Source of the DNA: Heptranchias perlo
Lineage: Eukaryota
Direction of reading: 5' to 3'
Assembly (NCBI RefSeq): GCF_035084215.1
Contig: NC_090349.1
Coordinates: forward strand, 10,602,001 to 10,666,000
DNA length: 64,000 nucleotides
The translations under genes were made by a program, and so were the position numbers. This document shows, piece after piece, positions 44,001-45,564 of this stretch; position 1 is the first letter of the stretch; every line of letters begins with the position of its first letter. The notes under the pieces are model-generated. The model ran no database searches. It worked only from the letters and a program-made list of their open reading frames with translations, and was not told the origin of the DNA.

Positions 44001-45349
44001 TCTGTGGAAGGATGTCATGTGGCAAAAGGCACTTAAAAGTGGTCATTCTTTAAAGAAGACAGAATGTCCTCTGTGTTTGTGCCCAAGTCGAGTTACAAAT
44101 TTTAGCCAGGAACAAGTGAAGGGCAGGCATCTGCCAACATAGTTGGGGGTGAGGGGGATTCCGAGGAAGGATAATTCCCTTCACCGTCTGAAGCATTCCC
44201 ATGGATCACCTAGTGGCTGGTTTCCAGAGTGGCATGGACGGTGTGTGGCTTGGTAGGGGGGGGTTTCTAAATGGAGGTGAAAGAAAAGGGAATATTATCT
44301 TTACTCAAAAAGAGGAACAAAAGTGCAAAATGTTTCTGTAATTTCCATATGTCGTTATCCAGCCCCAGCCCTGCATTCTTTCTGCTCGGAATGACATTGT
44401 GCAAGAAAGTTAGTATGAAGCTGTTTGCAGAGATCCCATGGTGACGATTTTTGACCTCTACCCCGCTTAAAGGTTAATTAATCACTCAGCTGTGCGGGAA
44501 CAGTACGTAACAATCAAATAACATTGACAGATACTAAAGGCAAGTGACCCGTGTTGCAAACAGTTTGTGAAGTTATGCTGGCAAATGTCTCTGGGCAGCA
44601 GGTGCTGCTGACACCTGCAATTGTGTGACTGCATCACTTCGCTCCATTTCACACCGAAACCTTATCTAATCCTCTTCTGTAGAATGTGGAGTTAATCACA
44701 AAAATAAACATAAAAGGAGCTTGACTACCTCGCCGATTATTCCTGTTGCTAAACCGGCTGAATTCGTGGCTGGTAAAATTCTGTTAATGTTTATTGAAGC
44801 ACAGAGCAAAGATACAGTGAGTTAGGATGCTGTCCTGTCACTGCTCAGACCGTGATTTTGCCTTAGGTTGAGATTGCTTCCAAATAGTTGGGTTATGGAT
44901 CCAATAAAATGAGTTTGGGACACTCTCGATCTGTTCTAGTAGGAATAAGGCCATGGCGCAAAACGGCTTATAATGTGGCACTGAGCTTCCTATCTCACAT
45001 AGCATTCATTTGCATTGCATGTTTAGCATCACCGCAAAACAATGTCAGTTTTGCCCTGAAGCTAAACTAGATGAGGACCCAGCCTTGACTCTGCAGTGAA
45101 GCAAAGTGAGATTCTCTGGAGGTGGTCGTCTCACACTGTTGGACCCCTAAGTACTTTGTAAACCCACCCGACTTCATTTTAAATTGAAGAACTCAGATTC
45201 TCCCCTCCCTGCTTTCTAAACATTTTAGGTTTTTACAACTGCTGGGAGAGAGCCCTGCCCACACTTGTGTCCAGCCACATGCTCTGTCCTGGGCAGCACT
45301 TGTAAACAATTTTACAACACCAAGCTATAGTCCAATGATTTTATTTGAA

Positions 45350-45390
45350 ATTTACAAGCTTTCGGAGGCTTCCTCCTTCCTCAGGTAAAT
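45350..45390 (-). ncRNA. Minimal type I hammerhead ribozyme motif, intact copy
   Basis: AUUUAC-CUGAGGA-A-GGAGG(AAG)CCUCC-GAA-AGCU-U/GUAAAU: 6-bp stem I, conserved core, 5-bp stem II and palindromic stem III. Activity is inferred, not shown. Confidence 0.75.
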
Positions 45391-45409
45391 GTCAGGAGGA
45401 GTTCCTGAC

Positions 45410-45450
45410 ATTTACCTGAGGAAGGAGGAAGCCTCCGAAAGCTTGCAAAT
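45410..45450 (+). ncRNA. Mirror hammerhead motif with one stem I mismatch
   Basis: ATTTACCTGAGGAAGGAGGAAGCCTCCGAAAGCTTGCAAAT. Confidence 0.68.
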
Positions 45451-45564
45451 TTCAAATAAAATCGTTGGACTATAACTTGGTGTTGTAAAATTGTTTACAA
45501 TTGTCAACCCCAGTCCATCACCGGCATCTCCACATCTGGGCAGCACAGTTACAGTTCCAGGCAG

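Follow-up and report, generated by a model that had tools for sequence, protein, structure and literature searches.

Inverted insertions of Penelope-like elements

In Penelope-like elements (PLEs) of the EN+ type, inverted and 5′-truncated copies with a one-sided tail of 30–40 bp are described as standard (PMC3846280; PMC8557442). The insertions illustrated in these papers (PMC8557442 Fig. 2; Pen2a_Av, PMC3846280) consist of head-to-head inverted pLTRs with a tail at one end and a target-site duplication (TSD), and their parent elements encode a reverse transcriptase (RT) with a GIY-YIG endonuclease at the C terminus. How such inverted repeats and tails arise is, according to PMC8557442, still to be explained. 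For PAc, a Poseidon element from the anole Anolis carolinensis, the protein is reported to cut and extend both target strands in vitro from two internal start sites, which bracket the tail at the pLTR–ORF junction and have a hammerhead upstream. Ribozyme cleavage is dispensable for this activity, and the protein is predicted to form a dimer (PMC11167929).

The minimal hammerheads of metazoan PLEs are described as having no helix III, palindromic positions 15.2/16.2, an extra nucleotide at 9/10.1 and a G10.1–C11.1 pair, and in Schistosoma dual minimal hammerheads occur on opposite strands, 100–700 bp apart (PMC4209133). Non-LTR retrozymes, as described in 10.64898/2026.07.22.740005, are non-coding, hammerhead-bearing derivatives of PLE pLTRs that are arranged in head-to-tail tandems permitting dimer cleavage.

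The 64-kb stretch of Heptranchias perlo DNA analysed here (the window) contains a 258-base mirror-image insertion whose architecture is already published: like the EN+ insertions above, it has head-to-head inverted pLTR copies, a tail at one end, a TSD and a parent with RT and GIY-YIG. It is an ordinary copy of a very abundant family of short palindromes (minis), and its standing as an independent mini-element is not supported. Compared with the EN+ insertions as published, the minis have both arms shortened to roughly where the RNA is inferred to begin, are without coding sequence and number ~16,000 copies. The insert likely formed in one event, with a probability of roughly 0.7, by reverse transcription that would have been primed from both nicked target strands.

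The insert and its surroundings

Two inverted 98-bp arms (45300-45397 and 45403-45500) with three mismatches (45325, 45336 and 45354), a tail of 35 nt and a perfect 11-bp TSD make up the insert (Table 1). They had been described in an earlier note made from the letters alone, and their coordinates are confirmed. The 5-nt spacer that this note placed between the arms (45398-45402) is present, but it belongs to the element: upstream of the search anchor, the right arm agrees with long copies over 37 nt, to 45396, and has 2 nt in common with the left arm. The note also held that the insert arrived recently and as one unit. It is indeed one unit, while "recent" applies only in a relative sense: over the 50 nt that follow the cut site, the window arms show 3 differences, whereas 40 of the 50 sampled minis show two differences or fewer, so that by arm divergence the window copy is not among the youngest. 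No second copy of the insert was found within the 64-kb window.

Table 1. Features of the inverted insert (positions in the window)
Feature	Position	Strand	Basis or remark
Left target-site duplication, 11 bp	45289..45299	.	family TSDs 11–14 bp in 36/50 minis
Short-end (S) arm, 5′-truncated pLTR/5′UTR copy stopping ~36 nt before the element's ATG	45300..45397	-	
Minimal type I hammerhead motif, stem I of 6 bp without mismatch, cut predicted to fall between 45356 and 45355	45350..45390	-	sequence
Junction, 2-nt microhomology (45396-45397) and 5 nt of element sequence ("spacer")	45396..45402	+	
Long-end (L) arm, 5′-truncated pLTR/5′UTR copy reaching the element's start codon	45398..45535	+	
Minimal type I hammerhead motif, stem I with A–C mismatch, predicted cut after 45444	45410..45450	+	sequence
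Right-arm hammerhead parts	stem I 45410-15/45445-50; core 45416-22; stem II 45424-28/45432-36	+	
35-nt tail, final 35 nt of the 5′UTR ahead of the ORF's ATG	45501..45535	+	
Right target-site duplication, matching 11-mer	45536..45546	.	first C also fits the element's next base

An interspersed repeat fragment (45560-45997) begins 14 bp past the right TSD, and relatives of this fragment lie at 1826-2229, 21230-21636, 46867-47051, 51308-51725 and at further places. A plus-strand frame at 13398-14201 matches DDE_Tnp_4 (E 4.5e-12) and a minus-strand frame at 16249-16908 matches Myb/SANT (E 3e-4). Together (13398-16908) we take them to be the gene pair of a PIF/Harbinger-type transposon; a 33-bp tandem repeat (15407-15673) is situated between the two frames. 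Broken reverse-transcriptase frames on the minus strand (33601-34988; RVT_1, E 4.4e-24) probably belong to an old LINE. Minisatellites are found at 3719-5115 (period 40 bp), 6131-7096 (32-34 bp, very G-rich), 56504-57202 (40 bp) and 58868-59974 (46 bp).

The parent element

Judged by its match to longer copies, the insert is a pair of head-to-head, 5′-truncated copies of the pLTR/5′UTR of a Neptune-type PLE. A DNA search of the 3.25-Gb genome turned up 407 candidates; 40 of them were scored and 30 retrieved. A protein search for the element gave 16,668 candidates, with long open frames among them. The longer relatives of the insert carry RT and GIY-YIG coding sequence and have a common 3′ end, many of them with an inverted partner. 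In 9 of the 14 long loci fetched, the tail runs directly into the ATG of an ORF of 891–902 aa, and exact matches to the tail followed by CATG number 9,896 genome-wide. The Penelope-like origin and the minimal type I hammerhead put forward in the earlier note both hold. The autonomous Penelope element bearing this terminus, which the same note had called for, is present in the genome as an ORF of 902 aa with RT and GIY-YIG.

The 902-aa ORF matches the RVT_1 profile (E 3.4e-10), while the GIY-YIG profile was matched in one partial copy only (L020; E 4.3e-4, 21 bits vs a cut-off of 22.6). The motifs DKG and YIDD are present, the CX2-5CxxC linker takes the form C-x4-C-x2-C at residue 753, and in the endonuclease region two Cys are placed between VVY and YIG, with two His further downstream (CCHH-type). 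Furthermore, Atlas neighbours of the ORF at 0.98 bear RVT_1/GIY-YIG/HTH_animal, and tandem element units of 3081-3090 bp (L095-L097) form pLTRs. With RT and GIY-YIG, tandem pLTRs, and an inverted truncated copy with tail and TSD, the element is an EN+ PLE as far as its sequence features go. Several intact 902-aa ORFs are near-identical (L091-L097), and the family has therefore been active recently.

The linker between RT and endonuclease defines the clades Neptune and Nematis (PMC8557442). The linker and the CCHH-type endonuclease of the H. perlo ORF fit either of these two clades, and Poseidon was rejected since the ORF possesses the linker that the Penelope/Poseidon clade lacks. Placement in Neptune rather than Nematis is preferred because only Neptune and Poseidon are reported from vertebrates in the account of 10.64898/2026.07.22.740005. 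A further difference from PAc concerns the position of the ribozyme. The PAc ORF is described as starting inside the ribozyme, with the start sites 111–118 nt into the ORF (PMC11167929), whereas in the H. perlo element the ribozyme and both ends lie in the 5′UTR, with the long end at the ATG.

Abundance, end classes and arm relations

A genome-wide check of copy number and TSDs had been proposed in the earlier note. Counted by exact pattern, there are at least 87,270 + 360 ribozyme-bearing arms (about 87,600) and at least 15,874 minis, defined as head-to-head pairs with 25-75 nt between anchors, the mini pattern being its own reverse complement and each site being counted once per strand. Arms were sampled without selection from 59 regions around the first 100 exact matches (3 of the 100 places lay outside the regions). 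A relaxed anchor yielded 108 arms, and 97 were analysed after removal of 11 duplicates. The mini sample comprises the first 50 of the 15,874 and overlaps partly with the sample of 27 head-to-head pairs; both samples lie in the first 10 Mb of one contig.

On contig C2 (2.76-5.80 Mb; L125-L134 and seven other places), a single rare arm variant is matched 17 times, always on the plus strand and at distances of 50-360 kb; this is probably a large tandem segmental duplication. On contig C1 (3.93-4.02 Mb; L209-L214), the inserts are located within a GATA/GA-rich tract and were duplicated along with it; these duplicates were excluded from the 97-arm set.

The 3′ ends of the 97 arms fall into two classes, with 45 ending at the ATG (L) and 49 about 35 nt upstream (S), and the remaining 3 continue into the ORF. 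An L and an S end are combined in 27 of 27 head-to-head pairs, one of which (L170) may be two separate insertions, and 24 of the 27 have a flanking repeat of at least 12 bases, located with a finder that permits a few bases of slack. Pair spans are below 300 bp in 17 of these pairs and grade in the remainder to 3.7 kb. The minis follow the same rule: 48 of 50 are L+S, 2 are S+S and none is L+L. Their TSDs measure 11–14 bp in 36 cases, and none was found in 8. Among the 40 minis whose TSD reaches 10 or more, 33 have their S end at -35 to -40.

In 13 of 27 pairs it is the S arm that extends deeper into the element (in one of them 2932 vs 102 nt), in another 13 it is the L arm, and in 1 the two are equal. 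Since reach varies in both directions and only the L arm has the tail, neither arm copies the other. The 42 unpaired arms comprise 22 S-only and 20 L-only inserts; with single inserts of both kinds about equally common, either site can prime alone. Furthermore, the two arms have the same haplotype in 31 of 46 minis vs 135 of 2070 between-locus pairs, which suggests that the arms of a mini derive mostly from one RNA or one source locus. The arm haplotypes are non-identical in 15 of the 46, and some are subfamily-like (L228, L248, L250 and L271 carry different subfamily-like haplotypes in their two arms). Such mixed minis may stem from two-RNA events or from a source element with differing 5′ and 3′ pLTRs. 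At six loci (L236, L249, L251, L264, L273 and L028), the junctions contain small templated repeats of arm sequence, as would result if priming recurred while the ends were being joined.

An alternative route to these palindromes is fold-back or self-priming, which is unlikely but survives best among the competing explanations. Here, a cDNA or antisense RNA would snap back and be copied into the second arm, after which the endonuclease would resolve the product at the S site and leave a one-sided tail. PMC3846280 proposes self-priming to explain the inverted junctions of PLEs and PMC8557442 to explain the tail, and such a route would account for same-haplotype arms and for near-perfect palindromes such as L201 and L275. 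However, a copied second arm does not fit the 13 of 27 pairs in which the S arm has sequence absent from L, up to 2.8 kb more, and the confinement of the tail to the L arm and the about equal numbers of S-only and L-only inserts argue in the same direction.

Less likely still is a SINE- or retrozyme-like nature of the palindrome itself, as a non-autonomous mini-element whose transcripts insert again as whole units. The 15,874 minis would suit such an element, and non-autonomous PLE derivatives are on record (10.64898/2026.07.22.740005; PMC8557442). Like non-LTR retrozymes, the minis are non-coding, hammerhead-bearing and derived from PLE pLTRs, but they are arranged head-to-head with variable junctions instead of as head-to-tail tandems. 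The earlier note had proposed an independent non-coding mini-retroelement, and this claim is not supported: all 50 of 50 oriented junctions are different, the sizes merge continuously into full-length inverted inserts (171 to 3729 bp), and the insert contains no TATAAA and no match to a Pol III A/B box, although it may have some different type of internal promoter. In favour of whole-unit re-insertion, the junction of the window occurs exactly, and in the same orientation, a second time in the genome, beside a different TSD. This twin, however, is without the window's three arm differences, and a sharp 5′-end peak combined with microhomology predicts occasional identical junctions by independent events. 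Re-copying of a palindrome would be rare.

Arm 5′ ends, TATA box and ribozyme cut site

Measured upstream of the anchor, 52 of the 97 arms start at 14–37 nt, 6 at 38–62 nt and 3 below 14 nt; a further 31 are spread over 63–2900 nt (a ~2,840-nt spread) and 5 start beyond. The 24-nt band that holds the 52 starts lies just downstream of a TATA box, with a mode at +30 when the offset is measured on the best-matching long copy, and 18 of 61 short arms start at TATA+29 to +31. The position of the 5′ edge moves with the TATA box. In subfamilies with the TATA box 61–64 nt upstream, 15 of 41 arms start at 33–34 nt, mostly on TCATTTC, which we take to be an Inr-like motif. With the TATA box 53–59 nt upstream, 8 of 62 arms mark an edge at 27 nt, and 13 lie beyond it. 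The edge thus shifts from 27 to 33–34 nt as the TATA box shifts by ~7 nt between subfamilies, 28 of 131 arms having been excluded from this comparison as ambiguous.

We infer that the pile-up of 5′ ends marks the 5′ end of the RNA, trimmed afterwards, and that transcription would start as the TATA box and the Inr-like motif indicate. Most short arms end downstream of +31, so a run-off model requires trimming; the window arms start upstream of the +30 mode, at TATA+18 and +25. The Penelope promoter of D. virilis is described as internal and TATA-less (PMC2377424), which counts against a TATA-based start. A spliced 5′UTR intron behind the 5′ edge was rejected, as the sequence upstream of the short arms is heterogeneous and shows no common exon.

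Few arms end where the ribozyme is predicted to cut. This position gave 166 matches, with 26 of 30 checked being truncations, and ends one base upstream gave 131 matches, with 16 of 30 checked being truncations. This amounts to ~144 cut-site ends (about 0.3%) vs 43,789 intact arms, a ~two-fold excess over the neighbouring base. Ribozyme-cut RNA as the main template was rejected, there being no large pile-up at the cut site; the template appears to be uncut RNA. Given the two-fold excess, ribozyme-cut RNA may be used on rare occasions, and several cut-site junctions are explicable by stem I complementarity giving microhomology. That the pile-up reflects an RT stall, an RNA processing site by the hammerhead or ribozyme-cut RNA instead of a transcription start is the least probable reading, for although the 14–37 nt band overlaps the 5′ strand of stem I and the cut-site excess exists, the 5′ edge follows the TATA box and not the ribozyme, and the cut-site ends are few and in part accounted for by stem I.

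Proposed priming from both target strands

In the preferred reading, in which both nicked target strands prime reverse transcription, the element protein, probably dimeric, would nick the two strands ~12 bp apart and so give rise to the TSD. One 3′-OH would prime at the ATG (L site) and the other ~35 nt upstream (S site), and both primings would use the same RNA or RNAs from one source locus. Where priming takes place inside the 5′UTR copy of the pLTR, both cDNAs would run off the RNA 5′ end after 100–140 nt. Their 3′ ends would subsequently be trimmed and joined via microhomology or filler, and the product, without a TATA box, would be a probable dead end. The palindromic stumps are likely built afresh at each landing, the start of the element RNA being copied onto both cut DNA strands.

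In L1 twin priming, both target strands likewise prime reverse transcription, and the resulting inversions hold non-overlapping parts of one RNA. The arms of a mini, in contrast, are two copies of one and the same stretch, each begun at its own fixed start site. Priming from two nicks agrees with the behaviour of PAc in vitro, where both strands are extended from two sites that bracket the tail. Further observations that count against the model are the mixed haplotypes (15 of 46), the recurring window junction and the two-fold excess of ends at the cut site.

The hammerhead motif

In each arm, a CUGAGGA core is accompanied by an additional A, a stem II of 5 bp, GAAAGCUU and a stem I of 6 nt. 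The earlier note had recognized these parts, apart from the additional A, on both arms, which is correct for the core, stem II and GAAAGCUU, but a perfect 6-bp stem I is intact in the left arm only (minus strand). In the right arm, stem I is broken by an A–C mismatch (45414/45446), a variant found in 360 of 87,630 arms. With the arms folded alone, the probability of the first stem I pair is at most 0.02 in the right arm vs 0.48–0.98 in the left. An apparent arm-specific change two bases after the cut (C in the L arm, T in the S arm) was rejected as an artefact of query selection, because the C sits in 360 of 87,630 arms and in both arm types. The motif shares with the minimal hammerheads of metazoan PLEs the absence of helix III, the palindromic 15.2/16.2, the extra nucleotide at 9/10.1 and the G10.1–C11.1 pair, and differs from the motifs described in PMC4209133 in having U at position 17.

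A search with hammerhead models, also suggested in the earlier note, came back empty: no Rfam hammerhead model matched the insert at E up to 10. Matches were to hairpin/miRNA-type models only, all below their gathering scores, and a miRNA-type identity was rejected as these matches merely mirror the hairpin shape. Covariation of the stems among copies was, on the other hand, found as that note anticipated. In 36 related variants, hand-picked from 101 with recurrent ones favoured, 91% of the stem I and II cells are paired vs 23–49% in slid controls, and two-sided (compensatory) changes occur at 4 of 11 stem pairs. The outer stem II pair is GC in 17 variants, AU in 7, CG in 1 and GU in 2, and is unpaired in 9. 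Within the core, C3, G5, A6, G8 and A9 are invariant, U4 is altered in 1 variant and N7 is G or C; the GAAAGCUU side is fixed by the search anchor, and its conservation is no evidence. Covariation thus lends moderate support to a selected hammerhead structure in the parent element. At two loci (L139 and L196), older-looking subfamily variants have the core U4 replaced by C.

The full hairpin of the insert folds at -175.9 kcal/mol. Whereas the probability of stem II is 0.7–0.99 in single arms, it is <0.0001 at all prefix lengths tested (equilibrium folding of prefixes, not kinetics), and an intermolecular stem III did not appear in MFE dimer folds. Whichever strand is transcribed, the antisense arm comes ahead of the ribozyme, and the hairpin is therefore predicted to silence it. 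Competition between hairpin formation and self-cleavage, as envisaged in the earlier note, would accordingly be one-sided. A palindrome that is read through is predicted to give a long hairpin rather than a working ribozyme, and dsRNA from the locus is possible provided that read-through occurs. The hammerhead itself is a passenger of the 5′UTR.

Significance for the family

The value of the locus is statistical, as the family to which it belongs yields sharp rules: each insert combines an L with an S end, its arms share a source, and the 5′ ends lie close to TATA+30, with hardly any at the ribozyme cut. The one-long-one-short rule, the 5′-end peak and the run-off model are unstated in the literature searched, and the family may be described in supplements, Repbase/Dfam entries or subscription papers beyond it. 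For annotators, the family is a warning, as its hairpins mimic MITEs, miRNA precursors or new non-autonomous elements and yet are truncation products.

There is a somewhat better than even chance that the palindromes as a whole are a genome-wide record of Penelope integration, in which a dimeric RT-endonuclease uses one RNA and two fixed sites 35 nt apart, and a run-off pair of 5′UTR cDNAs is the commonest product. If the priming model holds, the in vitro result for PAc would be linked to insertions in a genome. Read as such a record, the palindromes would give a single account of both the inverted pLTR and the tail at one end, and would map the start of the element RNA from DNA alone, with uncut RNA as the in vivo template. 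As a by-product, integration would have left ~16,000 near-perfect hairpins of 70–100 bp in the H. perlo genome, which are potential sources of dsRNA.
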